From NCBI GenBank assembly GCA_040830765.1, contig JBFOMH010000028.1, positions 31,089-95,088 of the forward strand: a stretch of DNA of 64,000 nt, written 5' to 3'. The position numbers and the translations under genes were made by a program. Positions 3,224-34,372 of the stretch are shown piece by piece (the stretch's first letter is position 1; every line of letters begins with the position of its first letter). The notes below the pieces were generated by a model. It made no database searches. It was not told the origin of the DNA and saw only the letters and a list, made by a program, of their open reading frames with translations. This stretch comes from Puniceicoccaceae bacterium. GTDB taxonomy: Bacteria > Verrucomicrobiota > Verrucomicrobiia > Opitutales > Oceanipulchritudinaceae.

Positions 3224-4711
3224 ATGAAGAAATCGATTGATTCTGGAAAATTGAATGTGTGGCAACGCGGAACAGGCATCTGCCTGCTCCTTCTGGCATT
3301 TGGGGCAGCCCCGCTCCTGGGCGAGGAGTCCTTCCCGATGGACACCAGCCCGGTCGAGGATGGGACTTTGCCCAGCATCGCCAGCTATGCGGACACCCTT
3401 GAACCGGCGCGCTCGGCAGTGGTTTCCGTGACAACGGCGAGTATTGTCGAGATCATGCGCAATCGCGGCCGCAGCCCGATGGAGGAATTCCTGCGCCGCT
3501 ACTACGGCCTCCCGGAGGATCCCCGCCGCCAGCAACCGGATGGTGAACGCCGTGAGCAGCGTGTTCCCAATGGGCTCGGTTCCGGTGTCATTATTTCCGA
3601 GGATGGTTACATTCTGACCAATAACCACGTTGTCTCCGACAATTCCGGTGAACCCGCGGACGAGATCACCGTCCACTTGGATGACGGACGTGAAGTGGAG
3701 GCAACCCTCGTTGGCCGTGACGAGCGGACCGATGTCGCCCTCCTGAAGATTGAGGAGAGTGGCTTGCCCTTCATTACAATGGCGGACAGCAACCAGCTGC
3801 GGGTCGGTGACATTGTCTTTGCTATCGGGAATCCGCTGGGGGTGGGGCAGACCAGTACCATGGGTATTGTCTCCGCAACTGAACGGACCAACCTTGGCCT
3901 GCTAGGCAACCAAGGCTACGAGAACTTTATCCAAACCGATGCGGCCATTAACCGCGGTAATTCCGGCGGGGCCCTTGTCGATGCCAAGGGACGCCTTGTC
4001 GGCATCAACACCGCCATCTTCTCCCAGACTGGGGGGAACATCGGAATCGGTTTTGCCATCCCGTCCCGACTGGCTCGTACGGTTGTGCTGGAGCTGATTG
4101 ATAGCGGCCGCGTCCGCCGCGGTTATCTAGGCGTTTCCATCAGCGACCTCAATCTGGACATGGCGGAGGCCTTTGGCCTTGAGTCCACAGAAGGTGCGCT
4201 TGTCGAAGCGGTCCAGGAATCCACCCCGGCTGCCCGAGCTGGCATGGAACGGGGAGACATCATCACCCACATTGAAGGTGAGGTTGTTGAGTCCGTGGCT
4301 GATTTGCGCCTGAAGGTGGCCTCGATGCGTCCGGGAACAGAGATTAATATCAGCATCCTGAGGGATGGTGAGGAGGAGAATTTGGTAGTCACCCTGGGCA
4401 GTCTTGATGACCCGACAGCAGTCGTGACCGGGGAAGATTCCCCGCTTGATGGCGTCGGCCTTGAGCCGCTCACTCCAGCTTCCGCTGAGGAATGGAACGT
4501 CGATGAGGAATCCGGCATTATCGTGACGGAGGTCAACCCGCGATCGCCCTTTGCCCAGATCCTGGCCAGTGGCATGGTTATCCTGGAGGTCAACGACGAG
4601 GCTGTCTCGACCATCGGTGAACTGAATGCCAACCTGCGCCCAGGCAGGGTCAACAAGCTGTGGGTATCCTTCCGGGGCAACCGTGGTTACCTCGCCTTGC
4701 GGATTCCCTGA
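3224..4711 (+). CDS. degP: Do/DegP-family serine endoprotease with two PDZ domains (start uncertain: 3179-3224)
   Basis: GSGVII, LTNNHVV, TDVALLK, FIQTDAAINRGNSGGAL catalytic motifs; RGYLGV PDZ junction; signal peptide. Confidence 0.9.
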   Translation: MKKSIDSGKLNVWQRGTGICLLLLAFGAAPLLGEESFPMDTSPVEDGTLPSIASYADTLEPARSAVVSVTTASIVEIMRNRGRSPMEEFLRRYYGLPEDPRRQQPDGERREQRVPNGLGSGVIISEDGYILTNNHVVSDNSGEPADEITVHLDDGREVEATLVGRDERTDVALLKIEESGLPFITMADSNQLRVGDIVFAIGNPLGVGQTSTMGIVSATERTNLGLLGNQGYENFIQTDAAINRGNSGGALVDAKGRLVGINTAIFSQTGGNIGIGFAIPSRLARTVVLELIDSGRVRRGYLGVSISDLNLDMAEAFGLESTEGALVEAVQESTPAARAGMERGDIITHIEGEVVESVADLRLKVASMRPGTEINISILRDGEEENLVVTLGSLDDPTAVVTGEDSPLDGVGLEPLTPASAEEWNVDEESGIIVTEVNPRSPFAQILASGMVILEVNDEAVSTIGELNANLRPGRVNKLWVSFRGNRGYLALRIP

Positions 4712-4713
4712 GT

Positions 4714-6789: not shown

Positions 6790-6900
6790 GCCTATATCGA
6801 ATCACGGAAAGTGGATGCGGCAAGAACAAGGCCAAATTTCTCACCATGAAGTCCCTGATTAAGTCTGGAAATTTCCTCAGGGGTTTCCAAGGATGAGAGA

Positions 6901-7887
6901 ATGAACGAGTCCAAAGCCCTCATTTACAAGGAATACGGCCTTCCGTCGACGGTGATTGACGTGGAGACACGACCGGTGCCGGATCCGGGACCTGGCGAAG
7001 TCCTGCTCCAGGTCTTGGCGGCCCCTGTCCATCCGTCGGATTTCGGGATGATCCTTGGTAAATATGGCCAGCTGAAGGAACTCCCAGCCATTGCTGGACG
7101 CGAGGGCGTGGCTGTTGTCAAGGCCGCCGGAGAGGGCGTTACGGAATTCCAGCCCGGAGACCGGGTGGTCGTGCCCAAGGAAATGGGCTCCTGGCAGACC
7201 TGCGGGATTGTCCCGGCAGAGGGCCTGTTCCGTGTTCCGGCGGACATTCCCGTGGAAATGGCGGCCATGGTCATGGTCAATCCCCCGACGGCCTGGCGCC
7301 TGCTGCGGGATTCCGGCCTCGCCAGCGGGGATTGGGTCATCCAGAACGCGGCCAATTCCGCGGTTGGCCTGCATGTCATTGAAATGGCTCATCACCTTGG
7401 CCTGAAGACGATCAATGTCGTTCGTCGGGAGGAGCTGGTCGAACCGTTGCTCAAGCTCGGGGCGGACCACGTTGTCCTTGAGGATTCCGGCTACGAGAAG
7501 CGGATCAAGGAATTAACCGGCGGTCAGCCGGTCAAGCTGGCCTTGAATTCCGTGGGAGGGGAAAGTGCCATCCACCTGGTCAATGCCCTTTCACCGGGTG
7601 GTATCCACATCACCTTCGGGGCGATGCAGTTCGAGGCGGTCCGCTTTCCAACCCGGGCCTTGATTTTCAATGATGTCCACATGAAGGGATTCTGGATGGA
7701 CAAATGGTTCCGCAGTCATTCGCAACCCCGCATCCAGATCATGTACGACAAGATTTTCGACTTGATGCGGAAGGGAATCGTCTCTCCCTCGGTTGACTCA
7801 ACCTATCCAATTGAGGATTTCAAGCAGGCCTTTGAGCGTGCCGGGCAGCCACGCCTGGGCAAGGTGCTCTTCACGTTCGAGGCCTGA
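6901..7887 (+). CDS. MDR-family 2-enoyl-thioester reductase-like (MECR/Etr1 type) oxidoreductase
   Basis: AAPVHPSD, GREGV, VNPPTAWRLL, QNAANSAVG motifs. Confidence 0.85.
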   Translation: MNESKALIYKEYGLPSTVIDVETRPVPDPGPGEVLLQVLAAPVHPSDFGMILGKYGQLKELPAIAGREGVAVVKAAGEGVTEFQPGDRVVVPKEMGSWQTCGIVPAEGLFRVPADIPVEMAAMVMVNPPTAWRLLRDSGLASGDWVIQNAANSAVGLHVIEMAHHLGLKTINVVRREELVEPLLKLGADHVVLEDSGYEKRIKELTGGQPVKLALNSVGGESAIHLVNALSPGGIHITFGAMQFEAVRFPTRALIFNDVHMKGFWMDKWFRSHSQPRIQIMYDKIFDLMRKGIVSPSVDSTYPIEDFKQAFERAGQPRLGKVLFTFEA

Positions 7888-7895
7888 TTTTCCAG

Positions 7896-10274
7896 ATGGA
7901 TCTGCTCAGTCTGCCAGACTTTACCCGCGAGGCCTTGGCGGAAATGGGGGGCTGGACCGCCTTGCGCAGTGCCCGGACCCTCTTTGAAGCGGGGGCCGTG
8001 CAGTCCGTTAACTGGGAGAAGCCAGTGCTCAGCGGGACTGTCCGGGAAGGGGAGACCGTCTACGAGCCGAAGCTCGATTTGCGTTCCATGACCTTCGTGC
8101 GCAACCGGTGCAGCTGCCGTACCGGCCGAAGCGGACAAGTCTGTCCCCATGCCCTTGCCCTCTGCCTGGCGGCCCGCCGGATGGAGCAGGCAACGCCTGC
8201 GGCCAGCGCTCCGGAGCGGCCACGCACAGGAGCGAACCGGGTTCTGCTACCGCAAAACTGGATGGTGGTGGATGGGTCCCCAAAGTACCTCTCCATCATG
8301 CTGCGGGAGAAAAACCACCCGCAATACAGCCGTCTGGTGGACTGGTTGCGGGCGGAAGGTTTCCGACATGAGCCCAGCAACGGGAAATGGTGGCTCCGGG
8401 ACCAGCACAAGGTACTGAACTTCCTGGCCCTCAACCGGCAGAGGCTGGAGACGGACTACGATGTCGGCTTCACGGAAGGTTTCCAGGAGCGCACCCGCAT
8501 GATTCAGCCGGTTAAACTGGACTGCCAGGCGCAGAAGCAACGGAACGGCTATACCCTGCGAATGGAACTGCAGGCCGGTGACACCGATATCCGCGACATC
8601 CGTCATGCGCTTGTAACGGGCCGTCACTACATCATTCAGGACGATAAGGTTTACCTGGTGGAGAAGAGCACCCTCGATCGACTGGCCTCAGCCAGCCGAT
8701 CCCTTGGGGGCGATCCGGAACTGCCCATGAGCGGCATCTTCCAAATGGATGTTCCCGGGGCCAATCTCGCCGACACGGCCAGTGTCCTCGAAGATCTGGA
8801 GATCGAGGCCGAGTTGCCGGCTGACTGGACGGAGCGCAGTGCCGCCATCCGGGAGGTCGGGCGGCTTCAGGCGCCGCCAATCCCGGAAGCCACAGCGGCT
8901 AAATTCCGTGCTTACCAGTTGATTGGAACCGCCTGGTTGTGGCACCTATATCGCAACCGCCTCGGCGGAATCCTCGCTGATGAAATGGGCTTGGGCAAAA
9001 CCATCCAGGCTATCGGACTCATCCTGAGTTGGAAAGGGGCAGGGGAGTGTAATGGACCGGTTCTTGTGGTTGCTCCCGCCAGTCTGCTGGGAAACTGGCA
9101 GCGCGAGCTCGCCACCTGGGCGCCAGAATTGAGCGTCTACTTGCATCATGGTCCCGGGCGCTTGACGGAATTCTGGCCAGACGACAAAGAGCCGGATGTT
9201 TGCCTCACCTCCTACAGCACCTTGCGTAATGACCAGACGCTTTTTGGCGGGGAGGGCTTCTCCTTCGCGATCGCGGACGAGGCCCAACACGTCAAGAACC
9301 GCCGGACCCATGCTGCCCGGTCCCTGCGCAGTATTGATACCCCGGCCCGCTTTGTCCTCACCGGTACGCCCATCGAGAATTCCCTTGATGACCTCCGTTC
9401 GCTCTTTGAATTCTGCCTGCCGGGTTACCTCAAGCGTCCGCCCTCCGATTGCCGGGGTGAGGACCGGGCCTGGCATGACAAGCGCCATCTCGAGATGGCT
9501 GCTCCCTATATCCTCCGCCGGGGCAAGAAAATGGTCGCTCCGGAATTGCCGGACAAGATTGAACAGACCATCTGGTGCAGCCTTGAGGACAAGCAGCTCG
9601 CGTATTACCACGCCGTGCAGCAGAAGAGCCAGCAGGCGATGATGGAGATGGCCCAGTCGGGCGTATCCGAAAACCGGCTGCGGTTCGCCCTCCTGACGGA
9701 GCTCCTGCGTCTCCGTCAGGTCTGCGCCGATCCGGGACTGGTCAACCCGGAGTTCCCGCTCGAGGCCTCGGGCAAGTTTCTCGCCTTCCGGGAACTCCTC
9801 GAGGAGGCCATGGACGGCGGGCACCGCATCCTCGTCTTTTCCCAGTTCGTCAAACTCCTGAAACGTCTCCGGAAATGGCTCCAGGAGCAGGATATCCCGT
9901 CGGCCTACATTGATGGCTCGACCCGGGACCGGCTCGCGGTTTGCGATTCCTTCAACAACAATCCGGACATCCCCCTCTGCCTCATCTCCCTCAAGGCGGG
10001 AGGGACCGGACTCAACCTGACCGGTGCCGATACCGTGGTCCACTTCGACCCATGGTGGAATCCAGCGGTGGAAGACCAAGCCACCGACCGGGCGCACCGG
10101 ATCGGCCAGGAACGGACGGTAACCAGTTACAAGCTGGTCACTGAAGGAACCGTAGAGGACAAGGTCCTTGGACTGCAGTTGCAGAAAGCCAGCCTATTAC
10201 GGGAACTTCTGGACGAAAGTGCCGCCCAGTCGGCAAAGGTTGATCTTGATACCCTGAAGGCTTTAATGTCCTGA
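7896..10274 (+). CDS. SWIM zinc-finger + SNF2-family helicase/ATPase
   Basis: N-terminal CSC...CPH SWIM motif; LADEMGLGKT, DEAQ, LTGTPIEN, SLKAGGTGLNL, QATDRAHRIGQ. Confidence 0.93.
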   Translation: MDLLSLPDFTREALAEMGGWTALRSARTLFEAGAVQSVNWEKPVLSGTVREGETVYEPKLDLRSMTFVRNRCSCRTGRSGQVCPHALALCLAARRMEQATPAASAPERPRTGANRVLLPQNWMVVDGSPKYLSIMLREKNHPQYSRLVDWLRAEGFRHEPSNGKWWLRDQHKVLNFLALNRQRLETDYDVGFTEGFQERTRMIQPVKLDCQAQKQRNGYTLRMELQAGDTDIRDIRHALVTGRHYIIQDDKVYLVEKSTLDRLASASRSLGGDPELPMSGIFQMDVPGANLADTASVLEDLEIEAELPADWTERSAAIREVGRLQAPPIPEATAAKFRAYQLIGTAWLWHLYRNRLGGILADEMGLGKTIQAIGLILSWKGAGECNGPVLVVAPASLLGNWQRELATWAPELSVYLHHGPGRLTEFWPDDKEPDVCLTSYSTLRNDQTLFGGEGFSFAIADEAQHVKNRRTHAARSLRSIDTPARFVLTGTPIENSLDDLRSLFEFCLPGYLKRPPSDCRGEDRAWHDKRHLEMAAPYILRRGKKMVAPELPDKIEQTIWCSLEDKQLAYYHAVQQKSQQAMMEMAQSGVSENRLRFALLTELLRLRQVCADPGLVNPEFPLEASGKFLAFRELLEEAMDGGHRILVFSQFVKLLKRLRKWLQEQDIPSAYIDGSTRDRLAVCDSFNNNPDIPLCLISLKAGGTGLNLTGADTVVHFDPWWNPAVEDQATDRAHRIGQERTVTSYKLVTEGTVEDKVLGLQLQKASLLRELLDESAAQSAKVDLDTLKALMS

Positions 10275-10276
10275 AA

Positions 10277-11392
10277 ATGCGGATCGACTGGTATGTGTTC
10301 AGGGAGTGGCTGAAGGTCTTTATCATGACCTTGTTCGTGCTGTTCGGGCTGCTCATCATCAGCGATCTGCAGGACAACTTGCCGGACCTGCTCGGGTTCG
10401 GGGCCAGCAATGCAGAGATTTTGCGTTACTATGCCATCAAGCTGCCTTCCTTCGTGCCCATTGTTGTTCCCATGGGGTTCATGGTCTCGCTGCTTTTCAG
10501 TCTCGGGCAGTTTCACCGGAATCACGAGATAACGGCCATGCGGGCGGCCGGATTCAGCCTCTTCCGGATTACCCGCAGCCTTTGGGCATCTGGCCTCGTG
10601 CTCACTGTCATCCTCTTCCAAATGAACGCCCGGATCATTCCCTGGTCGGTCGAGGAGGCCCGGCAGATCTGGAACGATTATGCCTACAGCAAGGCACTGC
10701 AGGAGGAGGCCAATGAGGAAGTGGGCCTGCTCTACAATCTGACCTTCTTCAACCGTCGGGACGGCCGTCTGTGGTTCCTGAACCGCTTCAACGAGTACAA
10801 CTACCGCGGGTTTGGCATCACCATCTCCGAATTGAATCCGGAAAACGGGCAGGAGCTGCGGCGCATTGCCGCCAACCGGGGCTACTATGATGACTTGAAC
10901 GGTGGCTGGACCTTCAATGAGGGACGGGAGACAACCTTTGATGAAAGCAGTGGCGATCCTGTTCGCAGTTTGCCTTTTGACCAGTTGCACATGGCCGGGT
11001 TCACGGAGGATCCCGACTTGATGAAGGCCCTCGAAAAGCGTCCCAAGGACCTCTCCCTGAGCGAGCTCAAGACGGTGGTTGATTACCTTCGTCCAGCGGA
11101 GGATCCCCGCCTGGCCACTTATGCCGTGACCTTCTATGATCGGCTCTTCAGTCCAGTCAGCTGCCTGATCATCCTCGGACTGGCGATTCCTTTTTCGGTT
11201 ACAGGGGTGAGGACCAACCCATTTGTCGGAGTCAGTAAGGCGATGGGCCTGCTATTCCTTTATTACATCCTTCTCAATGTGGCCCAGTTTGCCGGGACCA
11301 GCGGGTTCAACCCGCTGTTGGCGGCTTCGTTGCCAAATGTCGCGGCTTTTGCCCTCATTGGATGGTACTTTATTAAACTGCAACATCCATGA
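10277..11392 (+). CDS. LptF/LptG family LPS export permease
   Basis: RIDWYVFREW start, HEITAMRAAGFS motif, three TM + periplasmic domain + three TM, C-terminal AASLPN. Confidence 0.88.
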   Translation: MRIDWYVFREWLKVFIMTLFVLFGLLIISDLQDNLPDLLGFGASNAEILRYYAIKLPSFVPIVVPMGFMVSLLFSLGQFHRNHEITAMRAAGFSLFRITRSLWASGLVLTVILFQMNARIIPWSVEEARQIWNDYAYSKALQEEANEEVGLLYNLTFFNRRDGRLWFLNRFNEYNYRGFGITISELNPENGQELRRIAANRGYYDDLNGGWTFNEGRETTFDESSGDPVRSLPFDQLHMAGFTEDPDLMKALEKRPKDLSLSELKTVVDYLRPAEDPRLATYAVTFYDRLFSPVSCLIILGLAIPFSVTGVRTNPFVGVSKAMGLLFLYYILLNVAQFAGTSGFNPLLAASLPNVAAFALIGWYFIKLQHP

Positions 11393-12543
11393 TGAAGCTT
11401 GTCTTGAAAAAGGAAGCCGCGCGGGCCCGTGTCCGCAATGGCCATCCGTGGCTTTTTGTGAACGAGGTCGAGGCGGTACCGGATGCCTCCTTTGATGGCA
11501 AGGCACTGGCCCTTGAGGATGCCCGTGGTCGTCATCTCGGTATGGGCATTGTCAATACACAATCCCAAATCCTCTGGCGGCGCTACAATAAGGACAAGGA
11601 GGCCTGGGGTCCTGAGTTCTGGGCCAAAGCTCTCGAGCGGGCAAACCACAACCGCGAGGAGGAACCCTTTCGTCGTCTGGTCTGGTCGGAAGCTGATGAC
11701 CTTCCCGGTTTGGTTGTAGACCAATTCGGCGATGTCCTTGTTGTTCAGGCCCTGACCAAGGCAATTGATCTTGCGCTCAAGGAGTTGCTGCCACTTTTGC
11801 AGGAACAGTATTCCCCGCGGGAGATTCTTGTCCGTAACGATGCACCCAGTCGGCGGCGGGAGGGTCTTGAGCTGGAGAGCTACACTGTCAGCGGCAAGCC
11901 GCTACCGGCGTTCTGGGCGGAAATCTATAACGTGCATTATCACCTCGACCTCGACAAGGCACAGAAAACGGGATTCTACCTGGACCAGCGACAGGAACAC
12001 TTCAAGGTGGCCACCTTTGCTTCCGGATGGCGGGTTCTTGATGCCTTCTGCAACCAAGGTGCCTTTGCCATCAATTGTGCCCTCGCTGGCGCTCGGGAAG
12101 TCATTGCCATTGACAGCTCAGCGGAGGCTATTGAACAGGGGCGGAAAAATGCTGCCAAAAACGATGTCTCCGTGGAATTCAGGGAGGAGAACGTCTTTGA
12201 CTATTTCACTGCCAACCGGGAGGAGCGCTTTGACCTGGTTATCCTCGATCCACCCTCCTTTGCTCCCAACCGGCGATCGGTCAAGGGTGCCCTCAAGGGA
12301 TACAAGGAGCTCCACGTTCGCGCATTCCGGTCGCTCAATGCCGGCGGCATTCTTGCTACCTATTGTTGCTCCCATCATGTCTCCCGGAGCCTTTTCCGGG
12401 AGGTCATTGAGCAAGCCGCGGCCGACACGCGGAGCAAGGTCCAGGTTCTTTACGAAACCGGCCAACCGATGGACCATCCGGTCCTGCTGAATTTTCCGGA
12501 ATCGGAGTATCTCAAGGGATTTATCCTGAGAATGCAGGATTGA
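11389..12543 (+). CDS. rlmI: RlmI-like class I SAM-dependent rRNA methyltransferase
   Basis: GHPWLF PUA start, SEADDLPGLVVD, QKTGFYLDQR, ILDPPSFA, DHPV...ESEYLK. Confidence 0.85.
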   Translation: MMKLVLKKEAARARVRNGHPWLFVNEVEAVPDASFDGKALALEDARGRHLGMGIVNTQSQILWRRYNKDKEAWGPEFWAKALERANHNREEEPFRRLVWSEADDLPGLVVDQFGDVLVVQALTKAIDLALKELLPLLQEQYSPREILVRNDAPSRRREGLELESYTVSGKPLPAFWAEIYNVHYHLDLDKAQKTGFYLDQRQEHFKVATFASGWRVLDAFCNQGAFAINCALAGAREVIAIDSSAEAIEQGRKNAAKNDVSVEFREENVFDYFTANREERFDLVILDPPSFAPNRRSVKGALKGYKELHVRAFRSLNAGGILATYCCSHHVSRSLFREVIEQAAADTRSKVQVLYETGQPMDHPVLLNFPESEYLKGFILRMQD

Positions 12544-12545
12544 CC

Positions 12546-13451
12546 TTACCAGAAGAAGGTCATTACCCGGGGGTCCAGGTGTTTCTTTGAGCGTGACGGA
12601 TAGAGGGTTCGCCACACCGTGGCGTAATTTTCCCATGGTCCCCGGATTTCGTTGTCCACCAATGGTTCCGGGCAAGTGTCATCAGGTGAAGGAACATCCA
12701 TTTTCAATCGCTCCCTGAAGACGGCATGGCCGTAAGGGAATGCATAGTGCAAAAGCCGTCTTTCCAGATGATTGCCCAGGGCAGGGAGATCCGTCTCGCT
12801 GAAGCGGGGATTTCGCTTATTGAAAAACTCCAGCGCCACGATGGCCCGCTCCAGTTCAATGGTCGCCTTCCAGAGCGAATCCCTAACCTTTACCGCCGCG
12901 GCAGTGCCATAGCCCGTCCATCCGCAAGGGCCCATCCTCCAGCAGAGGACTACCGCAGCTTCGGAGATCGGGTTGTTGATCCGGACAGCCGAAAATCCAG
13001 GTACCTTAGTTTCCAATGGCTGATGCTCCAGGCAGCGATTCCACCACTGGACGAGGCAGTACCGTTCCTCGGCCTCAAGCCGCGCCCGTTCGCGGGCTGA
13101 TCCCTTGAAGAGTCCAGGGAAGGCCGCAATGCCGCTTGTTGTGTCATCATCCTGGAACCCATGGGATGCGTGTTGGCCCTGCTGGCAGATATAGTGGAAG
13201 GCCCACCGTTCCAGTGCTTCCGAGATAGCCTTGTGCCGCGCTACCATTGGGGAGGCGTCGGTCCCGGTCCCGTCAGCGTTGGCAAAGACTTGGTTCTCCC
13301 CCTGCCTGAGGTTCAAGTACCGGGATAAGTAAGCGCTGGCCTGCTGGAGCTGTCTTCCCTGGATGGTGACAGGACCGTGCTCAAGGTACTCAATGGGGCC
13401 GCCATGGCAATTGAGGACTTTGCTGTATCGCAGGGGCGCAAGGCTCAACAT
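12546..13451 (-). CDS. Compact stand-alone YcaO-like protein
   Basis: Three YcaO-type nucleotide/Mg-binding motifs recognised by eye: GTG61-63...K74AISE78ALE81R82; TTS106G107IAA...R122ARLE126AEE129R130; GYG180-182...K195ATIE199. GGAG RBS 7 nt upstream of ATG. Confidence 0.75.
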   Translation of the reverse strand: MLSLAPLRYSKVLNCHGGPIEYLEHGPVTIQGRQLQQASAYLSRYLNLRQGENQVFANADGTGTDASPMVARHKAISEALERWAFHYICQQGQHASHGFQDDDTTSGIAAFPGLFKGSARERARLEAEERYCLVQWWNRCLEHQPLETKVPGFSAVRINNPISEAAVVLCWRMGPCGWTGYGTAAAVKVRDSLWKATIELERAIVALEFFNKRNPRFSETDLPALGNHLERRLLHYAFPYGHAVFRERLKMDVPSPDDTCPEPLVDNEIRGPWENYATVWRTLYPSRSKKHLDPRVMTFFW

Positions 13452-13484
13452 GAGGTGCTCCAGCCAGTTGATGAAAACATTCCT

Positions 13485-13503
13485 GTAGCGGACTGTCCGC
13501 TAC
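13485..13503. promoter_or_regulatory. Hairpin between peptide gene and YcaO gene
   Basis: gtagcggac-t-gtccgctac perfect 9-bp inverted repeat overlapping the peptide stop codon. Confidence 0.55.
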
Positions 13504-13685
13504 TTGCGCTTGTTTGAACCGCAGGGCAGGGTCCCGAGTGCGGGCGAATCGCTGGAAGGATCGGGAATCAACCTGGACTCGCTTTCCAGTTCATCAAATG
13601 CCTCCGCAGCCTTGACGAACCCACAGCTTAAAAGCAATGTGGCTGCCACATGAAGAATGATTCTGGGTATGCGTATTCTGCTCAT
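13500..13685 (-). CDS. Small secreted-type peptide, candidate RiPP/pheromone precursor (61 aa)
   Basis: ATG start; basic N-region, hydrophobic stretch, AEA site, acidic spacer, C-terminal SSDSPALGTLPCGSNKRK; 48 bp upstream of YcaO-like gene on same strand. Confidence 0.6.
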   Translation of the reverse strand: MSRIRIPRIILHVAATLLLSCGFVKAAEAFDELESESRLIPDPSSDSPALGTLPCGSNKRK

Positions 13686-13773
13686 GTGTTCAGGAATAAT
13701 TCCGGTGCTACCTAAATTCGACTAAAGGACCTCCTTGAATTCAAGTACTTTTTTTCCTTTACATGGCTGGACG

Positions 13774-16700
13774 ATGCGGGCCCACTTGCTTTCGGTCTTC
13801 CTGGTTGCTGCGGTAGCTTCTCTCCTGGAGGCCTCCATGGAGCGGTTTTTCCACTACGGTGAGCCGCTGGTGCAGGATCTGGGTATTGATGGATCCAAAG
13901 AAGGGGGGTATATTTGGAATATTGTCTGGGACGACCTGGGGGTGGCCTATCTTGGCCGGGATACCCTCTGGCGCTGGGATGGGACCAACATGAGGCAACT
14001 GGGACCGGATCACCTGGTCGAACTCAAGGGAATGTGTTTCGATGCCCAAGGCAGGCTGTGGTTGGGAAGTTTCAATGAGATTGGGGTCTTCGATCCCCGT
14101 ACCTTGAGGTATGATTCCCGACTGGACTGGATTCCGCGGGAAAAACAGGCTTTCGGACAAGTATGGGACCTTCACCACGACGGGGAGTTCCTTTGGGTTG
14201 CCACGGACCATCAACTCTTCCGGGTCGGGGAAGACAGCTTCAGCGACTGGTCATTTCCCGGGGACCATCGGGTCATCTTCCACTTTCTTGAGTCAGGCAC
14301 TTATGCGCACCAGGTTGGTGTCGGCCTTTGGCGATTGCAGGACAGTGAGATGCACTTGCTTTGTGATGATTCCCAACTGGCCGAACGCAGCGTCCTCTAT
14401 CTTGAGGATCAGCCTGATGGAACGTTGATGGCCGTCTCCGGGAGTGGGGTGTTCTATTACCATGAGAATTATATACCATCACTAATTAAGAATCAGTTTC
14501 CGTCACATATTTCACTAAGTGGGGTATGTGAAATATCTAGAGATCATTGGCTTTTAGGTACCCTAAGTGATGGCATCTTCGAGTTAACCAAAGAGGGTCA
14601 GGAATTCTCGCTTAGGAAAAGCAAGTCTCAGAGAGAACAGATAAGTATAATCAAATTACTGACCGATCCCCACGGAGAACTATGGCTTGTTGATTTAGAT
14701 TCTGTTCAGATCGTTGATTTTTCATTCCTAATAACTCTGCTTAAAGGACCGGAAGATTTCCCCTCAGGGACAATTCGAGACATCAGTTTAATAAAAAGTT
14801 CTTTAGTACTTGGAATGGATACTGGAGTCTTTGAATTTAAGTCTAAAGATCTCAAAAACAATTGGATTCAGCACACCGAAAATGAATCCAAAAAGACTGT
14901 CGCTTTTGATGGCGCGATATATTTTGATGACTACGATCGGTTGATGGTTCTCAAGGACGGGAACCCGGAAGTATTGGCGGAGTTTGACCGGGAGATCCGC
15001 ACGTTCACCCTGACCTCGCCGGACCGATTGGTTGTGGCCTTCAACGATCGGTTGGAGGCCTATCGCATCATCCCCGGTAGGGAATTGGAGCTGCTTGGGG
15101 AATACAGTACATTGAACGGGCTCGTTAAGCTGGAAGCCGATGCTACTGGACGGGTCTGGGGGTGGTCTCACCGCACGCCATTGCTGGAGGTCGTTGCTGA
15201 TGGAATGGAGTTGAAAGTACATCGGTACGACACCGTTTCGGGAAGGGACCTGTTCAGCGAGGAGCATCAATTTGCGATAACTTCCGTGGGTCCGGTTCTG
15301 GTCTTTCATGACACATTGGCGCGTTACGCTGCAGGAAAGGGAATCTGGGAAGTGACGCCCTTTGACCCTGGACTGGGGCGATTGCAGGCCGTGGATTTCC
15401 GGATGGAGGCGAACAACCTGTCGGGCTGGCTGATCGTGCGGGATCCGATGACGGACAACAGCCTTCTTCTGGAAGTGAACTGGCCGGCAGACGGCGTAGT
15501 GGACTGGAGCATCCTGCCCTGGCCTGCGATGGATGAGATTGGTCCGGTCATGGATTTTGAATATGTGGATGGTCCGGAACCATACTTTGTCTTTGGCGGC
15601 CTGCGGGGAATCCTCATTGCACCGGTCGCGGTGTCGGAGCGCATTCCTGCACCAGGTAAGCCGGTTATTTGGGAGGGGTTGGCCGGCATACAACCCGCTG
15701 GTGACCGGGAAACGGAATTTGGTGCGGGCAATCTGCATTATTCCTTCAGTACCCCACGGGCCAGCTGGCACTATCCTGTGTGGTACCAGACGCGGATTAA
15801 GGGAATGGACCCTGACTGGACTCCCCCAAGTCCATTTGCCTTCAGGGATACCGGGCAACTGCTGGACGGCACGTTCGACTTTCAGGTACGGGCGGTAGAT
15901 CCCTTTGGCCGGGTGGGCCCAATTGCCTCGGTCCGGTTGAAGGTTAATCCTCCCTGGAGCCGTACCGGATGGGCTTACCTCATTTACTTTGGCTGTATCT
16001 TGTTGCTGGTCGCATTTGGTGTTCGCTTCGCTATCCATCTGGAGCGCAACAAACAGCGCAAACTGGAGCGCCTCGTTGATGAAAGGACCCACGAATTGCG
16101 CCAGGCAAATGCCTTCAAGGACCTCTTGATTGCCAACTTGAGCCACGAAATCCGCAACCCGTTGAACGGAGTGATTGGCCTTATCCGTCAGTTGAAGGAG
16201 GATGCCCTGCCTCCTTTGAGCCATTTGAAGGCCCTTCGGCAGGCAGCGGACTACCTTCGCAACACAGTCGAGGGCGTACTGGACTTTTCCAAGATTCAAT
16301 CGGGTCAGGTTGAGCTCAAGTTCAAGCCGGTCAATTTAAGACCTGTCCTCATGGGGCCCGTTGGTATCTACAGGTCCCAGGCTAAAGCAAAGGGGCTTGA
16401 CCTTAAAGTCGACTTTGAAGTCGCGGATGAGTTGGTTGTCGTTACGGACGAACAGAAGATACAGCAAATCATGGGTAATCTTGTTTCCAATGCGATCAAG
16501 TTCACCGAGGCGGGTACCGTATCGGTCGAGGTCCGGTTGGAAGTGGAGGAGCTGGAGAGGGGCAACTTGACTATATGCGTCATGGATACAGGTCGTGGCA
16601 TAGCCCCTGAAGACCATGACAAGATTTTCCAGGAATTCTACCAGAGCAAGGGACCCGCTCTAAAGACTCCCGGCACAGGTCTTGGTCTGGCACTAGTTCG

Positions 16701-17601
16701 GCAGTATGCGGAGCTCTTGCAGGGAACTGTCAGCCTGGAGTCCACATTAGGGGAAGGTTCCTCCTTTACGGTGTCGCTTCCGGTTTCCGTGGCCGCATTC
16801 GGATCTGACAACGGTGAAGCAGACCTCCCCGGGGCAGCTTTGAACCTCTCTGTCCTGGTCATTGAGGATACCGATTACAACCGACTCTTTATGGAGGACT
16901 TGCTTGTCGAGCGCGGGTGCCGGGTTGACCTTGCCGAAGATGGAAATACCGGATTACAGATGGCGCTAAAAGGTCAGTATGACCTCATCTTCCTTGATTG
17001 GGAATTGCCAGGAATGAATGGTGTGGAGATTACCCGGGAGCTGCGGGCGAATCAGCAATTCGATCAATCCACACTGCTGGTGGGACTGACAGCCTTTGCC
17101 ACGGAGGACAGGCGCCGGGCTGGACTGGAGGCGGGTATGAGTGCTTTCCTGGTCAAGCCGCTGGAACTTCGCGATCTTTACAGGGTCCTCGAGACAAGAT
17201 ACCCGGGTTTGAAGGATGTTATAAAGGGAGCTCTGGAATCCGAAGATACGCAGACAGGGGCAGGAAACAGCGGTGAGTCCTTGATCGCAGGCAGGGGACT
17301 CCTGGCTGAGATGTCGGCTCACAAGGATTGGGACGACTTGAAGAACCGGTGGCTGGGAATTTTCAATGAGCACGTCCTCGAGGTTGCCCAGGCCATAGAA
17401 GGTGGCGACAGCGAGACCATTCGCCGCTACACCCACAAGCTGCTCGGGCATTTGCGCATGCTCCAAGCGGAACCCATCGCAGAACCCATCCAGCAGATGC
17501 TGGTTGCGGCTCATGGAGGAGATATGGAGCGTATCTGCCGGCACTGGGCCACGTTCAACGGTCGGCTGGAGGCATTCCGTGAGGCTTACAGGAAATTGTG
17601 A
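13774..17601 (+). CDS. Hybrid sensor histidine kinase (beta-propeller + Y_Y_Y, TM, HisKA, HATPase, REC, Hpt); start 13774 ATG or 13735 TTG
   Basis: Signal peptide; propeller-like repeats (DAQGRLWLG, DPHGELWL); WYQTRIKG..GTFDFQVRAVD..PPWSRT; TM; LSHEIRNPL; NLVSNAIKFT; DTGRGI; GTGLGL; IFLDWELPGMNG; YTHKLLG. Confidence 0.92.
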   Translation: MRAHLLSVFLVAAVASLLEASMERFFHYGEPLVQDLGIDGSKEGGYIWNIVWDDLGVAYLGRDTLWRWDGTNMRQLGPDHLVELKGMCFDAQGRLWLGSFNEIGVFDPRTLRYDSRLDWIPREKQAFGQVWDLHHDGEFLWVATDHQLFRVGEDSFSDWSFPGDHRVIFHFLESGTYAHQVGVGLWRLQDSEMHLLCDDSQLAERSVLYLEDQPDGTLMAVSGSGVFYYHENYIPSLIKNQFPSHISLSGVCEISRDHWLLGTLSDGIFELTKEGQEFSLRKSKSQREQISIIKLLTDPHGELWLVDLDSVQIVDFSFLITLLKGPEDFPSGTIRDISLIKSSLVLGMDTGVFEFKSKDLKNNWIQHTENESKKTVAFDGAIYFDDYDRLMVLKDGNPEVLAEFDREIRTFTLTSPDRLVVAFNDRLEAYRIIPGRELELLGEYSTLNGLVKLEADATGRVWGWSHRTPLLEVVADGMELKVHRYDTVSGRDLFSEEHQFAITSVGPVLVFHDTLARYAAGKGIWEVTPFDPGLGRLQAVDFRMEANNLSGWLIVRDPMTDNSLLLEVNWPADGVVDWSILPWPAMDEIGPVMDFEYVDGPEPYFVFGGLRGILIAPVAVSERIPAPGKPVIWEGLAGIQPAGDRETEFGAGNLHYSFSTPRASWHYPVWYQTRIKGMDPDWTPPSPFAFRDTGQLLDGTFDFQVRAVDPFGRVGPIASVRLKVNPPWSRTGWAYLIYFGCILLLVAFGVRFAIHLERNKQRKLERLVDERTHELRQANAFKDLLIANLSHEIRNPLNGVIGLIRQLKEDALPPLSHLKALRQAADYLRNTVEGVLDFSKIQSGQVELKFKPVNLRPVLMGPVGIYRSQAKAKGLDLKVDFEVADELVVVTDEQKIQQIMGNLVSNAIKFTEAGTVSVEVRLEVEELERGNLTICVMDTGRGIAPEDHDKIFQEFYQSKGPALKTPGTGLGLALVRQYAELLQGTVSLESTLGEGSSFTVSLPVSVAAFGSDNGEADLPGAALNLSVLVIEDTDYNRLFMEDLLVERGCRVDLAEDGNTGLQMALKGQYDLIFLDWELPGMNGVEITRELRANQQFDQSTLLVGLTAFATEDRRRAGLEAGMSAFLVKPLELRDLYRVLETRYPGLKDVIKGALESEDTQTGAGNSGESLIAGRGLLAEMSAHKDWDDLKNRWLGIFNEHVLEVAQAIEGGDSETIRRYTHKLLGHLRMLQAEPIAEPIQQMLVAAHGGDMERICRHWATFNGRLEAFREAYRKL

Positions 17602-17604
17602 TCC

Positions 17605-18279
17605 TCAATCGTGTACATGGTAGGTGTCCTGCAGCCCCATGCTAGGAAAGGCGGGCTTCCAGAATCCACATTCGTTGGCGTAGCGAATAAGTTCTGGCGT
17701 ACTGTGGACGTCCAGTTTGCGGAAAAGATTCCGGCGATGGGTTTGAACGGAGCTTTCACTGAGTCCGAGGCCTTCGCCGATTTCGCGGTCAGATAATCCG
17801 GATCCAATGAGGGTGAGAACCTCCTGTTCCCGCTTGGTAAGGATCTTCTGGAAAGCCTTCGGGTCCGTGCGCAATTGATTCAGGACGGCCTGGATACTGG
17901 GGGAATAGTATCGCTGGCGCGCAAGGACTCCCTCGATCGCCTGCCGTAGCACGTCAACGGAGGCCTCCTTCTTGTCGATGAACGCCGGAAGGTGCTGCTT
18001 GTTTACCTGGTAAACGGTCTTGGGATCGGTTTCCGCCGAAAGGGCGATGATACGTAGCTTTGGCATTACGGCCAGCAACCGCCTTGCAACATGGATACCG
18101 GACAGCTTTGGAATCAGGATGTCGAGGATAACCAAATCTGGCTTCTCTCTCAAGATGAGCTCAAGGGCGGCTTCCCCATCCGTCGCGATACCGGCGATCT
18201 CAAATCCCATCTTGTCTCGCAACTGGTCAATCAGGAACTCCTGGAAAAGTATCTGGTCTTCAACGACAACCACCCTCAT
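17605..18279 (-). CDS. NarL/LuxR-family response regulator
   Basis: VVVEDQ, PDLVILDILIPKLSG receiver; LTKREQEVL...VQTHRRNLFRKLDV HTH. Confidence 0.93.
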   Translation of the reverse strand: MRVVVVEDQILFQEFLIDQLRDKMGFEIAGIATDGEAALELILREKPDLVILDILIPKLSGIHVARRLLAVMPKLRIIALSAETDPKTVYQVNKQHLPAFIDKKEASVDVLRQAIEGVLARQRYYSPSIQAVLNQLRTDPKAFQKILTKREQEVLTLIGSGLSDREIGEGLGLSESSVQTHRRNLFRKLDVHSTPELIRYANECGFWKPAFPSMGLQDTYHVHD

Positions 18280-18322
18280 GGCACGCTCACCTTAGTTTCA
18301 TTGCCCGGTATGTAAAGATTCC

Positions 18323-19798
18323 TTAATGGTCCCAGGGCATGCGAACGTCCTCACGGGTGAACGACCAGGGCTCGCTGATTTCCCACAGCTTCCCGGGATT
18401 GAGAATCCCGTTCGGATCAAGGGCCTCCTTGATGGCCCGCATGGCCCGGATTTCCGCTTCGGAATGTTGCAGCTGGAAGAAGGGAGACTTGGCCAGTCCA
18501 ATCCCGTGCTCCCCGGAAATGGCCCCGCCCAGGTCGATGACTTTCTCCATCAGTTCCTGCAAGGCGGTGCGAGCCGTGGCGGAAACTTCCGCATCTGTTT
18601 CATTATACATGATATGGACATGGAAATTGCCATCCGCGGCATGTCCGAAAGTCGGGGTGGGGAGGCCGGTTTGATGATGGATATCGTGCACAAATTGCAG
18701 CAGGTCGAGCTGGGCGTCAAAGGGCACCACAACATCCTCATTGAGCTTGCGGGTTCCGAGCTCAAACATGGCCTGGGAACAGGAACGACGTACTTTCCAG
18801 AGCAACTCAACGGTTTCCTCCTCAATGGCCGTGGTGTAGTCTCCCGTTCGATCGGCCACCAGGGCCGTTACGGCATCCAGTTGCTCGCGGACTTCGTTTG
18901 GACGACCATCCACTTCAATGAGCAGAAGCGCCGCCTCTTTTCCGGACAGGCGGTATTTGTTGAGGCAATCAGGCAGGTCATCCAGAAGGTGGGGGGATTT
19001 GCGCTTCCAGAATGAGAAAGTGCAGGCCACTGTCTGGGTATCGAGAAATTCAAGTGCGGAAGGAGTCTGGCCCACCCGAAGAAGCTCCTGCGAGCATTCG
19101 AGTGCCTCGCGGTCAGACCCGAAGACGGCCAGGCAGGTAGCGCTGGCGGGGGGACGGGGAATCAATTTGAGGACAGCCCCCGTTATGATCCCAAGGGTTC
19201 CTTCCGATCCAATCCAGAGGTCCCGCAGGTTGTAACCCGCGGAAAACTTGCGCAGATTACCGGCCCAACGGACAAACTCCCCGGTGGGCAGGCATCCTTC
19301 AAGGGAAAGGACGTAATCCCGGGTCACCCCGTACTTGGCCCCGCGCATGCCACCGGCGTTGGTGGCGATCGTCCCGCCGACCGTGGCGTAGGCCTTGGAG
19401 CCGGGGTCCGGCGGGTAGGCAAGATTGTGCCGGGCGGCGGCTTCATCCAGCTCGGCTAGGGTGACCCCTGGCTGGACATAGGCCATTCGGGCCACAGGAT
19501 CGATGTGGAGCTGCTTCCAGCCAGACATGTCGAGCACCCATCCCCCTGGTGCAGGGGAGGTGGCCCCGGTGGTCGCTGATCCGGCCCCGCGGGTGGTCAC
19601 GGCGATCCCATGGGAGTTGGCCAGGCGCAGAACGGTATCCACGGCCTCCTCATCCCGGGGCCGGATGCATGCCGAGGGCATCCGGCTGTAACGCAGGTTG
19701 TCCATGGAAACCGCATAGAGAACCTCCGGGTCGGTAATGACCTGGCTGGTATCGAGGGCGGCCAGAAGGGCGTTGAGGGCTTTGTTGTCGGGATCCAT
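18323..19798 (-). CDS. FAD-linked oxidase, GlcD/D-lactate dehydrogenase family
   Basis: TVGGTIATNAGG..KYG, GSEGTLGII, GHAADGNFH, SGEHGIG, DPNGILNPGK. Confidence 0.9.
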   Translation of the reverse strand: MDPDNKALNALLAALDTSQVITDPEVLYAVSMDNLRYSRMPSACIRPRDEEAVDTVLRLANSHGIAVTTRGAGSATTGATSPAPGGWVLDMSGWKQLHIDPVARMAYVQPGVTLAELDEAAARHNLAYPPDPGSKAYATVGGTIATNAGGMRGAKYGVTRDYVLSLEGCLPTGEFVRWAGNLRKFSAGYNLRDLWIGSEGTLGIITGAVLKLIPRPPASATCLAVFGSDREALECSQELLRVGQTPSALEFLDTQTVACTFSFWKRKSPHLLDDLPDCLNKYRLSGKEAALLLIEVDGRPNEVREQLDAVTALVADRTGDYTTAIEEETVELLWKVRRSCSQAMFELGTRKLNEDVVVPFDAQLDLLQFVHDIHHQTGLPTPTFGHAADGNFHVHIMYNETDAEVSATARTALQELMEKVIDLGGAISGEHGIGLAKSPFFQLQHSEAEIRAMRAIKEALDPNGILNPGKLWEISEPWSFTREDVRMPWDH

Positions 19799-19876
19799 GT
19801 CGGCGTTAAAGGGATGCCTTTAGCCTTGCCAGAGGCGGGTCCACTTCTACTGATAGGGAAAAGTTGAGAGAACTGT

Positions 19877-20293
19877 ATGGAAAAAACACTTATTATTCTC
19901 AAGCCGGATGCCTTTGAAAAGCGGAAAGTGGGTGCGACCATCGCCCGCTTTGAGGATGCCGGCCTGTCTATCGTGGCCACCAAGATGATTGAGCTCAGCA
20001 GCGCCTTGCTGAAGGAGCACTATGCACACATTGCGGACAAGCCCTTTTTCCCGGAAATTGAGGGTTTCATGTCATCCATGCCCGTCATTGTCATGGTACT
20101 TGAAGGAAACTCGGCCATTGAACGCGTCCGTAACCTGGTCGGCCCGACCAACTCGCTTGCCGCCCCGGCCGGAACCATCCGCGGTGACTGGGGGACGAAC
20201 ATGATGCTCAATATCGTTCATGCTTCAGATGGTCCGGAGACGGCAGAGATGGAAATCAAGCGATTCTTCGCTGAGGGTGAGGTCTTCGCCTAA
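19877..20293 (+). CDS. ndk: Nucleoside-diphosphate kinase
   Basis: TLIILKPDA, HYAHIADKPFF, GTIRGD, NIVHASD. Confidence 0.97.
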   Translation: MEKTLIILKPDAFEKRKVGATIARFEDAGLSIVATKMIELSSALLKEHYAHIADKPFFPEIEGFMSSMPVIVMVLEGNSAIERVRNLVGPTNSLAAPAGTIRGDWGTNMMLNIVHASDGPETAEMEIKRFFAEGEVFA

Positions 20294-20374
20294 TCGGCTA
20301 CGCCCCACGCAGTGAGGTCTTCGCCTAACCGGCTACGCCCCACGCAGTGAGGTCTTCGGCTAATCGGCTACGCC
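20277..20374. repeat. 35-bp tandem repeat (~2.8 copies) containing the ndk 3' end
   Basis: gtgaggtcttcgcctaatcggctacgccccacgca at 20277, 20312 and partial 20347. Confidence 0.9.
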
Positions 20375-20387
20375 TAACGGGCTAAAT

Positions 20388-21602
20388 CTAGACCTGCGTG
20401 GATCCTCGGCGCGTTCCCTGTAACGTTGCCACTGCGTGTGCCGCTATGCCGGCACTCTGACCCAATGCCCCAATCCGTTCCTGGGTAGTGGCCTTGATGC
20501 CAATGTCGATTGGCTGCAGTTTGAGCTTTTTGGCCAGGACAGTTTTCATCCGGGCGACGTATGGCGCCACCTTGGGCTGTTCCGCAATCAGGGTGGCATC
20601 GATGTTAACCACCTTCATTCCGGCCTTTTTGGCCTCACGACGCGCCTGCTTGAGAATCTCAAGGGAGGAAATCCCGGCAATGGAGGGATCGGTATTGGGA
20701 AAGTAGTGCCCGATATCCGGCAGGCCACAGCCACCAAGAATGGCATCGGCAATGGCGTGGGTCAGGACATCGGCATCAGAGTGACCCTCCAGGCCGACAT
20801 CTGAGTCAATCTCTACTCCGCCCAGGATGAGTGGAAGGCCCTCTTTAAGGCGGTGAATATCGTATCCGAGGCCGACCCGGACCTGGCTCTTTGATTCATC
20901 ATTCATGGCGTCTTTTGAAAGGATGCTTTCCAGCAGGGCAAAATCTGCCGGGCGCGTCAGTTTCGGATTGGGGTGCTTGGATTCGACGAGGAAGACCGGT
21001 TCGCCAAGGGCTTCCACAGCCGCGATATCGTCTGTCACCTTGTTGTTAAGGCTGGCATGGGCCTTTTCGATAAGCTGCCGGGGAAAGGCCTGTGGCGTCT
21101 CCATGGCCCAGAGTTTGTCCCGGTCAAGCAAGGTACCATGTCCCGGGTTATCCACCGGTGAGCTTTCGAAACAGCGGATAGTATCGGTTACCCGGTGGGC
21201 AAGGCTGACGGCACAGCGCATGGCGAGGAGGCTTTTCCGGACAGCTTGGAGGGTATTCCGGGTGACCGCAGGCCGTGCACAATCATGGATGGTGACCCAT
21301 TCGGCTCGACTGGGAACCATCTCTAGCCCGGCAGAGACGGAATCCTGCCGCTCGCTGCCACCGAGGGTAAAATAAACGGGCAGCTTCGTTTTCTCGGCCT
21401 TGATGATGGCTGCGAGTTCCTTCCGCTGGCGGTTGTCACGGGCCACAATGATGATACCGTCCTGAGTCCCACTGTTGGCGAAGGTGGAAAAGACATGTGC
21501 AAAAACGGGCCGGCCGGCCACCTCAACGAGGATTTTATCCTCCACGGAACTGCCCATGCGGGAACTCGATCCACCCGCCAGCAGGATTGCCACATGCTTC
21601 AT
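20388..21602 (-). CDS. ispDF: Bifunctional IspD/IspF
   Basis: LLAGGSSSRMG, GGSERQDSV, IHDCARP, ETPQAF; then VGLGYDIH, GHSDADVLTHA, DIGHYFP, KATT. Confidence 0.95.
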   Translation of the reverse strand: MKHVAILLAGGSSSRMGSSVEDKILVEVAGRPVFAHVFSTFANSGTQDGIIIVARDNRQRKELAAIIKAEKTKLPVYFTLGGSERQDSVSAGLEMVPSRAEWVTIHDCARPAVTRNTLQAVRKSLLAMRCAVSLAHRVTDTIRCFESSPVDNPGHGTLLDRDKLWAMETPQAFPRQLIEKAHASLNNKVTDDIAAVEALGEPVFLVESKHPNPKLTRPADFALLESILSKDAMNDESKSQVRVGLGYDIHRLKEGLPLILGGVEIDSDVGLEGHSDADVLTHAIADAILGGCGLPDIGHYFPNTDPSIAGISSLEILKQARREAKKAGMKVVNIDATLIAEQPKVAPYVARMKTVLAKKLKLQPIDIGIKATTQERIGALGQSAGIAAHAVATLQGTRRGSTQV

Positions 21603-34156: not shown

Positions 34157-34157
34157 A

Positions 34158-34260
34158 TAATCTTAATCTTAGCCTTAATCTTAATCTTAATCTTGATCTT
34201 CCCCAACAGGCCGTGCAAAGGCGCAGGGATCAAGATCAAGATTAAGGCTAAGATTAGGAT
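34158..34260. repeat. Hairpin element with hexamer-repeat arms, copy 1
   Basis: (taatct)n-like left arm, (agatta)n-like right arm, core aggccgtgcaaaggcgcagggat. Confidence 0.85.
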
Positions 34261-34265
34261 CGTAT

Positions 34266-34346
34266 AAAAAGATTCCCGGTTGCCGTCTGCTGACACCAGG
34301 AGACATCCGACAACCGGGAATGGATGAGGGGAATAAACTTCCCTTC
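34266..34346 (-). ncRNA. Candidate sigma54-dependent small RNA
   Basis: Lies between a -24/-12 motif (34357-34372) and a strong hairpin attcccggttgtcg...cggcaaccgggaat + TTTTT on the minus strand; no ORF-track ORF here. Confidence 0.45.
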
Positions 34347-34356
34347 TCTGCCTTTG

Positions 34357-34372
34357 AGCAGGATGCGTGCCC
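34357..34372 (-). promoter_or_regulatory. Putative sigma54 promoter
   Basis: Minus strand GGGCACGCATCCTGCT matches TGGCACG-N4-TTGCW with exact GG-N10-GC spacing. Confidence 0.55.

Follow-up and report, generated by a model that had tools for sequence, protein, structure and literature searches.

What do a small peptide gene, a YcaO-like enzyme, a hybrid sensor kinase and a LuxR-type regulator do together, and do they form one circuit at all? The question is raised by a four-gene block at positions 12546-18279 of a 64,000-nucleotide stretch of DNA (hereafter the window) from a Puniceicoccaceae bacterium (contig JBFOMH010000028.1). A preliminary description, made from the letters alone, had read the block as a peptide signalling module of the quorum-sensing kind, built on a RiPP, a peptide made by ribosomes and altered after translation. 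Our analysis supports this interpretation in part. The block appears to be an undescribed circuit of outer-membrane bacteria, with a peptide as its signal or as its effector, and the best overall explanation that we can offer is a self-contained modified-peptide circuit of the class Opitutia, of which the window carries one copy; we put the probability of this reading at roughly 0.4. The parts are of known kinds. Their combination, the enzyme subfamily and the precursor family appear to be new: full-text literature searches gave no published description of the module, in keeping with the earlier remark that no system of this combination was known to its author.

Gene content, fold, synteny and operator are computational results. 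All four open reading frames (ORFs) of the preliminary description were found at their reported positions. In the ORF listing, a gene for a 61-amino-acid precursor peptide (13500-13685) and a gene for a 301-amino-acid protein, here called mini-YcaO (12546-13451), lie co-directionally on the minus strand, 48 nucleotides of spacer (13452-13499) separating the stop of the first from the start of the second. The hybrid sensor kinase (13774-17601) is divergent from them on the plus strand, across an intergenic control region of 88 bp (13686-13773). This gap, as previously given, holds with the kinase starting at ATG 13774 (1275 amino acids); the ORF listing gives an upstream TTG at 13735 (1288 amino acids). 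A 224-amino-acid response regulator of the NarL/LuxR family (17605-18279, minus strand) converges with the kinase, and the two stops are separated by 3 bp (17602-17604), as had been noted.

This arrangement recurs. In a scan of one genome per species, we kept 80 loci out of 235 stretches encoding relatives. An iterative profile search, seeded with the window peptide and run over the upstream regions of these loci and of the window, found a homologous small ORF upstream of the YcaO gene and on its strand in 77 of the 81 sources; of the four that gave none, three offer no more than 164 nucleotides of upstream DNA. Kinase and regulator were traced by tblastn with the window proteins and counted in the 50 loci having at least 5.5 kb of upstream DNA: a divergent hybrid kinase is present in all 50 and a convergent LuxR-type regulator in 49, the exception being locus L002. 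Given this recurrence, the four-gene arrangement is far beyond chance, and the co-occurrence that the preliminary description had suggested looking for among homologues is indeed there. Identity of the YcaO proteins to that of the window ranges from 35 to 71% across loci. Among 401 genomes sampled across the phylum, 31 encode this YcaO, all of them in the order of the window and none outside it. Carriers make up 4/5, 5/26, 20/35 and 1/3 of the genomes in the families that we label f1, f3, f4 and f8, and belong by NCBI taxonomy to the Puniceicoccales and Opitutales, class Opitutia. A new mini-YcaO family, restricted to one order and obligately linked to a LuxR-type regulator and to a kinase of the Bacteroides BT4663 type (see below), is thereby established.

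The small ORF, which the preliminary description had taken for a gene, is a real, conserved, precursor-like gene family, and a new one: the ratio of nonsynonymous to synonymous divergence (dN/dS) between the window copy and that of the congeneric locus L001 is 0.08, and NCBIfam holds no family for the peptide. In the window peptide, residues 1-26 form a Sec-like signal, followed by Ala27, the junction AEAFDE, a variable region and Cys55 within LPCG. Ala27 is invariant in the family and Gly22, Asp31 and Cys55 are nearly so; the codon of Cys55 (13521-13523, minus strand) marks the proposed modification site. Across 56 aligned peptides, a positively charged start (median net charge of the n-region +2) precedes a hydrophobic core and the junction motif L-x2-G-h-x-[RK]-A-A-[ED]-x-h-D-P. 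Counted from the invariant Ala, Leu occupies position -8 in 46 of the 56 and Gly position -5 in 54; an acidic or polar residue comes directly after, position +3 is hydrophobic, +4 is Asp (54/56) and +5 is often Pro (29/56). The variable tail, 28-46 residues long, is rich in Pro and acidic residues, and 73 of 75 peptides of the main type (type 1) have a Cys after the motif, preceded by Pro in 53 and part of a CxxC in 16.

A cut before the invariant Ala conforms to the -3/-1 signal-peptidase rule in 45 of the 56 peptides, and we regard export by the Sec pathway as probable. A Sec-type signal would account for the lack of an exporter (the module contains neither a dedicated exporter nor an immunity gene), and delivery would be to the periplasm, not to the outside of the cell. 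The junction motif spans the predicted cleavage site and should therefore be read before cleavage, which fits recognition by a cytoplasmic YcaO. A Phr N-terminal model is weakly matched by seven of the 56 peptides (E at least 0.027), probably on account of the signal peptide alone. Alternatively, the hydrophobic N-terminus might stay uncleaved and serve as an anchor, at least in some species. The peptide would then be an MgrB-like partner in the membrane or periplasm that damps or tunes the kinase, with the YcaO modification setting its activity or stability. Conservation of the hydrophobic segment beyond the needs of targeting (Leu at -8, Gly at -5) would suit such an accessory regulator, as would the 11 peptides with no rule-conforming cleavage site, the direct adjacency of peptide and kinase genes and a periplasmic Cys like that of MgrB. 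We nevertheless consider it very unlikely, given the conforming majority, a conserved motif placed across the predicted cut site, as cytoplasmic recognition would have it, and the position of the peptide gene, on the strand of ycaO and a short spacer away from it, which is a tighter link than that to the kinase gene. In one clade of Opitutaceae (L004-L023), the YcaO gene follows two peptide genes in tandem (for example, L004 7453-7614 and 7629-7790); the proximal paralogue is without Cys, with a conserved FDPVFFGGR and frequently a terminal RLS.

Is the neighbouring enzyme a YcaO, and does it act on this peptide? The protein has 560 homologues of about 295-300 amino acids each and, by fold comparison, clearly has a YcaO fold. 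Three motifs are invariant or nearly so: E78/E81/R82, E126/E129/R130 and K195/E199. A profile alignment to E. coli YcaO by hhalign, with a probability of 47% only, pairs E126/E129/R130 with E199/E202/R203 and K195/E199 with R286/E290 of the E. coli enzyme, residues that we take to bind ATP and Mg. The Pfam YcaO family PF02624 is matched weakly by all 24 aligned homologues (best E 1.6e-8), and the SagD cyclodehydratase model by 23 of the 24 (best E 3e-7, far below that model's cut-off) and by the window protein at 12.5 bits. With about 300 residues against 360-396 in the shortest solved chains matched, the family is 60-100 residues shorter; a search among proteins of 528-2000 amino acids, which is weak evidence, found no fused or longer forms. 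Nor did we find an E1-like or RiPP recognition element (RRE) partner, a dehydrogenase, TfuA or a transporter among the downstream genes of 16 loci. In the window genome (96.9% complete), TfuA is absent, the docking model for thiazole/oxazole-modified microcins (TOMM), TIGR03882, gives only sub-cut-off matches, and the sole match to the SagB-type dehydrogenase model TIGR03605 lies on another contig with 27.9 bits against a cut-off of 78.4.

A complex predicted for YcaO and peptide, with ATP and Mg included, scores 0.50, the best of three controls 0.00. The mark used for such scores is reached by 116 of 157 solved complexes and by 2 of 215 mismatched pairs; scores that pass it at 0.60 or less occur in only 18 of the 157 solved complexes and in both passing mismatches. 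Contacts agree between runs by at least 78%, and the confidence of the partner (predicted local distance difference test, pLDDT) is at least 65. The prediction thus lends weak support to the pairing. In our judgement, YcaO probably acts on the peptide. Action with no RRE partner, as proposed here, is shared by E. coli YcaO and by the bottromycin YcaOs, which are partner-less. As reported (PMC13063428), the E. coli enzyme, of 586 amino acids with a TPR domain, thioamidates a folded ribosomal substrate, uL16, with no TfuA; mini-YcaO differs in that a dedicated peptide gene adjoins it. Since partner-less YcaOs modifying folded proteins thus exist (PMC13063428), the true substrate might be the kinase, the regulator or a ribosomal protein, the small ORF being an unrelated secreted peptide, and the weak complex prediction would agree with this. 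Such a target elsewhere is highly improbable: in 77 of 81 loci the peptide gene is the one immediately upstream, on the strand of ycaO, the family is limited to one order and always found with the module, unlike a housekeeping modifier, and the genome is devoid of TfuA. Mini-YcaOs may also exist outside the Verrucomicrobia. The third-nearest cluster of the ESM Atlas by language-model features (score 0.95) comprises 137 proteins of about 283 amino acids, is commonest in the Bdellovibrionota and has 20% of its members matching PF02624.

The kinase is predicted to consist of a first transmembrane segment, a periplasmic sensor (13867-15945), a second transmembrane segment and a cytoplasmic phosphorelay part (16117-17529). 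In the latter, HisKA (16117-16305), HATPase_c (16447-16785) and REC (16852-17187) are strong Pfam matches. Among the domains that the preliminary description had named, Hpt (17368-17529; 19.5 against 24.6 bits) and the propeller repeat Reg_prop (18.2 against 20.4 bits) stay below the Pfam cut-offs, and Y_Y_Y is not detected by Pfam in the window kinase. Its account of the sensor as beta-propellers with a Y_Y_Y domain is right by fold and by Pfam in relatives, Reg_prop being found in 33 and Y_Y_Y in 18 of 39 aligned sensors. An AlphaFold2 model of residues 14-790 (pLDDT 86.1) shows the two transmembrane segments flanking a large beta-rich periplasmic domain. Foldseek aligns it over about 790 columns to the Bacteroides sensors BT4663, BT3049 and BT4673 (E about 1e-29, TM-scores 0.70-0.74; 0.70/0.72 to BT4663, entry 4a2l, and 0.70/0.74 to BT3049, entry 3v9f), so that, as modelled, the periplasmic domain has the fold of BT4663-type sensors. 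The propeller and Y_Y_Y architecture is thus common to all; the window kinase differs in having an Hpt domain and a separate LuxR-type regulator, Pfam detecting only HisKA, HATPase_c, REC and Hpt and no AraC-type output domain, and in its place beside a peptide-ycaO operon, not in a polysaccharide-utilisation locus. Across loci, the sensor is only 14-20% identical to that of the window, except in L001 (61%).

The regulator has clear REC (E 7.7e-18) and GerE (E 7.8e-18) domains by Pfam, which place it in the NarL/LuxR family. A candidate operator lies in the control region between the divergent genes, which is conserved with L001 and partly with L002 (whose YcaO is 47% identical). It is a perfect palindrome of 12 bp, CTTGAATTCAAG (13734-13745), inside a 14-mer (13733-13746) that ends 47 nucleotides before the peptide ATG, and it is conserved across the window, L001 and L002. 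Of 48 intergenic regions (47 loci and the window), 27 have a 14-bp palindrome when no more than one mismatch is allowed, whereas 200 shuffles averaged 7.6 and never exceeded 14. These palindromes are mostly of an ACC...GGT type with clade-specific centres, 47-50 or 70-78 nucleotides before the peptide ATG. A conserved palindrome is the trace that a LuxR-type regulator, acting as a dimer at the promoter of peptide and ycaO, would be expected to leave, and on these sequence grounds it is likely that the regulator controls the operon, presumably by binding the palindrome. The 12-bp core has three exact copies in the genome, the other two within long ORFs. As a regulon marker the palindrome was rejected: with up to two mismatches allowed, it has 55 sites in the genome where the reversed control has 21, and no regulon could be defined. 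It was found by eye and by script; an automated repeat search of 13600-13850 returned no inverted repeat. We saw no sigma-70-like site in the intergenic region, promoter and terminator counts overall equalling those of shuffles. A second small palindrome, GGAATAATTCC (13693-13703), lies 8 nucleotides from the peptide start codon and is partly kept in L001.

The same genome holds a second, deeply diverged module on another contig (locus L084, taken from contig C3 of genome G000 at 33000-48000), at 4137-10194 of the locus. It comprises a LuxR-type regulator (4137-4808, minus strand), here on the strand of the kinase and overlapping its end; a hybrid kinase (4793 to about 8404, minus); a signal-bearing peptide of 55 amino acids with a C-terminal Cys (about 8427-8594, plus); a mini-YcaO (8652-9632, plus) whose second motif is E-x2-E-Y instead of E-x2-E-R; and an ORF with a REC domain (9307-10194, plus). 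The two copies share 32% identity in YcaO, 41% in the regulator and 28% in the kinase core; their sensors cannot be aligned by BLASTP. Divergence is also high between close relatives. Comparing the window with its congener L001, the module genes show dN of 0.09-0.24 and dS of 1.1-1.35 (66-85% amino acid identity over aligned codons), against dN of 0.003-0.064 and dS of 0.56-0.87 (89-99% identity) for four flanking genes (window 11389-21602), a contrast seen in one genome pair, whose dS is close to saturation. Recombination at the module, or old alleles there, would fit this excess. Low sensor identity, the second copy and excess divergence are all signs of a circuit that diversifies in specificity.

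What, then, does the sensor read? That it senses the peptide is a tentative proposal, to which we give somewhat less than an even chance. In its favour, the module consists only of a pair that makes a signal and a pair that reads one, peptide and sensor share a compartment and are both hypervariable, and the module is duplicated and fast-diverging. Alternatively, the two-component system may respond to a non-peptide stimulus, such as an oligosaccharide or an envelope cue, and switch on the peptide-ycaO operon, the modified and exported peptide serving as a periplasmic metal or redox buffer or as an antimicrobial. The sensor fold is that of the glycan-sensing BT4663, BT3049 and BT4673, the operator stands upstream of the peptide gene, and the Cys, Pro-Cys or CxxC (16/75) with acidic tails recall the bufferins with their adjacent regulators, as described in PMC11626156. 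Unlike a fixed metal site, the peptide has a single conserved Cys in an otherwise hypervariable core; the module includes no immunity or export genes; a sensor as variable as the peptide would be odd for a fixed ligand; and two orthogonal copies share one genome. We therefore judge a stimulus-driven effector rather unlikely.

If the block is a modified-peptide circuit, it may work as follows. The 61-residue precursor, with its Sec-type signal, junction motif, variable stretch and near-C-terminal Cys, would be the cytoplasmic substrate of the partner-less YcaO. With ATP, the enzyme would activate one of the precursor's backbone amides, either at the conserved Cys or beside it, most likely to give a Pro-Cys thiazoline (-18 Da), since its nearest relatives form azolines and neither a dehydrogenase nor a partner for sulfur transfer is present. 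Modification would precede Sec export to the periplasm, where the signal would be cut, in most species just before the invariant Ala. The propeller sensor would then read the level of exported peptide, and the phosphorylated LuxR-type regulator, on its palindrome, would drive transcription of peptide and ycaO, and probably of the divergent kinase gene too, in a loop of positive feedback like that of ComQXPA or nisin. What we infer in this scheme is all of the chemistry, the export and the binding. That the signal passes between cells rather than acting within the periplasm of one cell is unlikely. Phr peptides are processed further; the present peptide could likewise be processed, or could act within the periplasm. 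Equally doubtful is full ComQXPA-like quorum sensing in diderm Verrucomicrobia, in which a processed, YcaO-modified fragment (thiazoline or other) would leave the cell and be read by the propeller sensor. If this were true, peptide, sensor and operator would co-diversify into mutually orthogonal pherotypes, which would explain both the two copies in the genome and the excess divergence from the flanks.

A number of results weigh against the modified-peptide circuit. On the side of the enzyme, the window protein has no Pfam match at E<0.1 and reaches 12.2 bits against a PF02624 cut-off of 25.7, and a search of the PDB sequences with two family profiles (A1 and A2) matched no solved YcaO, so that the relationship to these is visible only by fold comparison; the YcaO identity that had been proposed for 12546-13451 thus stands by fold and falls short of the Pfam cut-off. 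The hhalign comparison with E. coli YcaO (E 2e-4) is of low probability, and the equivalent of E. coli Ser71 is, in our own reading of the alignment, Lys or Met. Mini-YcaO ends in FFW and lacks the Pro-rich (PxPxP) C-terminal motif, and the score of its predicted complex with the peptide is weak. On the side of the peptide, locus L019, the fourth miss, has an unrelated signal-like small ORF before YcaO, 2 of the 75 type-1 peptides are without Cys, 11 loci have a second, tandem paralogue that is Cys-less, and 11 of 56 peptides break the -3/-1 rule. For a periplasmic peptide of about 35 residues, no way through the outer membrane is apparent. BT4663 senses heparin, and the closest solved sensors bind glycans, not peptides. 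The divergence contrast, as said, is that of one genome pair. Finally, in a partial Mantel (mirror-tree) test over 44 loci, the peptide core tracks the sensor when YcaO is controlled for (r 0.32, p 0.001) and shows no such tie to YcaO when the sensor is controlled for (r -0.07). Since the leader tracks the sensor as well as the core does (r 0.30), the sensor is probably just a better clock, and we discount this signal as unspecific.

How does the proposed circuit compare with known systems? In ComQXPA of Bacillus, an enzyme modifies a short precursor near the C-terminus, and the other two parts are a sensor kinase and a regulator of the NarL/LuxR family. The four-part logic of this system, invoked in the preliminary description, fits: the same four parts are encoded together here and, in the one genome pair, the module likewise diverges faster than its flanks. 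It differs in having a YcaO in place of an isoprenyl transferase, a periplasmic double propeller in place of a polytopic membrane domain, a Sec-signal peptide and an outer-membrane host. Autoinduction of a RiPP through a two-component system is known for lantibiotics, for example, nisin with NisRK. The preliminary description had overlooked this precedent, as it had the Sec-type signal, the glycan ligands of the closest solved sensors and the second copy of the module. By analogy, both would have a modified ribosomal peptide and a two-component system of the cluster's own that controls the precursor promoter; the present module lacks lanthionine machinery, an ABC exporter, a protease and an immunity gene, and its regulator family and sensor type are different. 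From the azoline cyclodehydratases (McbD in McbBCD, LynD/PatD, SagD), mini-YcaO is set apart by its size of about 300 amino acids, by having neither an E1-like/RRE partner nor a dehydrogenase, and by a putative substrate with one conserved Cys in place of a core rich in Cys, Ser and Thr. The bufferins (PMC11626156) are RiPP precursors with a Sec signal whose Cys residues are heterocyclised in the cytoplasm and which serve as periplasmic metallophores; as users of the Sec pathway they have been reported as a rare case. A Sec-signal precursor, a Cys target, diderm hosts, neighbouring regulators and no dedicated exporter are common to both systems. Bufferins rely on an MNIO enzyme with a DUF2063 protein, have folded cores of 60-70 residues with several conserved Cys and are under sigma/anti-sigma control, whereas YcaO is the only conserved enzyme of the present module.

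The compact YcaO family, which is new and has no recognition partner, offers a minimal model for substrate selection by YcaO enzymes, and the new precursor family uses the general Sec pathway. The module would couple, in a new way, a modified peptide to a sensor of the propeller type, hitherto known for glycans. If signalling is its function, no circuit of peptide-based signalling may have been described in Verrucomicrobia before it. Being self-contained and made of four genes, it is easy to test.

RNA-library contigs with no differing letters lie over the module, although contigs alone do not show transcription or transcript ends. The 5' part of the YcaO gene, the spacer and the peptide ORF are joined on single such contigs (X2 13131-13699, X3 13145-13643, X4 13375-13682), and none bridges 13700-13783, a weak hint only, contigs being no proof of transcript ends; parts of the stretch without coverage likewise carry no weight, the comparison being of contigs only, with no DNA run beside them. 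RiPP operons often carry an attenuator just after the precursor stop. A candidate hairpin at 13483-13501 (minus strand), with an 8-bp stem starting from the stop codon, was rejected: it does not stand out from shuffles (z-score -0.66), and it is kept in L001 and absent from L002.

The block lies between two flanking genes, as had been described, which Pfam identifies as an RlmI-like methyltransferase (11389-12543) and a FAD-linked oxidase (18323-19798). These flanks recur only in the closest relatives (RlmI in four loci, LptF/G in two, the oxidase in one), and the genes downstream of the module differ among loci. Just 3' of YcaO and on its strand, three loci have an extra cytoplasmic kinase of PAS-HisKA-HATPase-REC organization (L010 9138-10895, L015 11117-12862, L030 8798-10840), and tblastn points to an extra PAS-kinase-REC gene in about 20 further loci. 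A lone REC protein occupies the position 3' of YcaO in L066 and in the second-copy locus on C3. These extra genes hint at a phosphorelay more complex than that of the window. In L015, a DDE transposase gene (9190-10956) is found between YcaO and the extra PAS-kinase gene.

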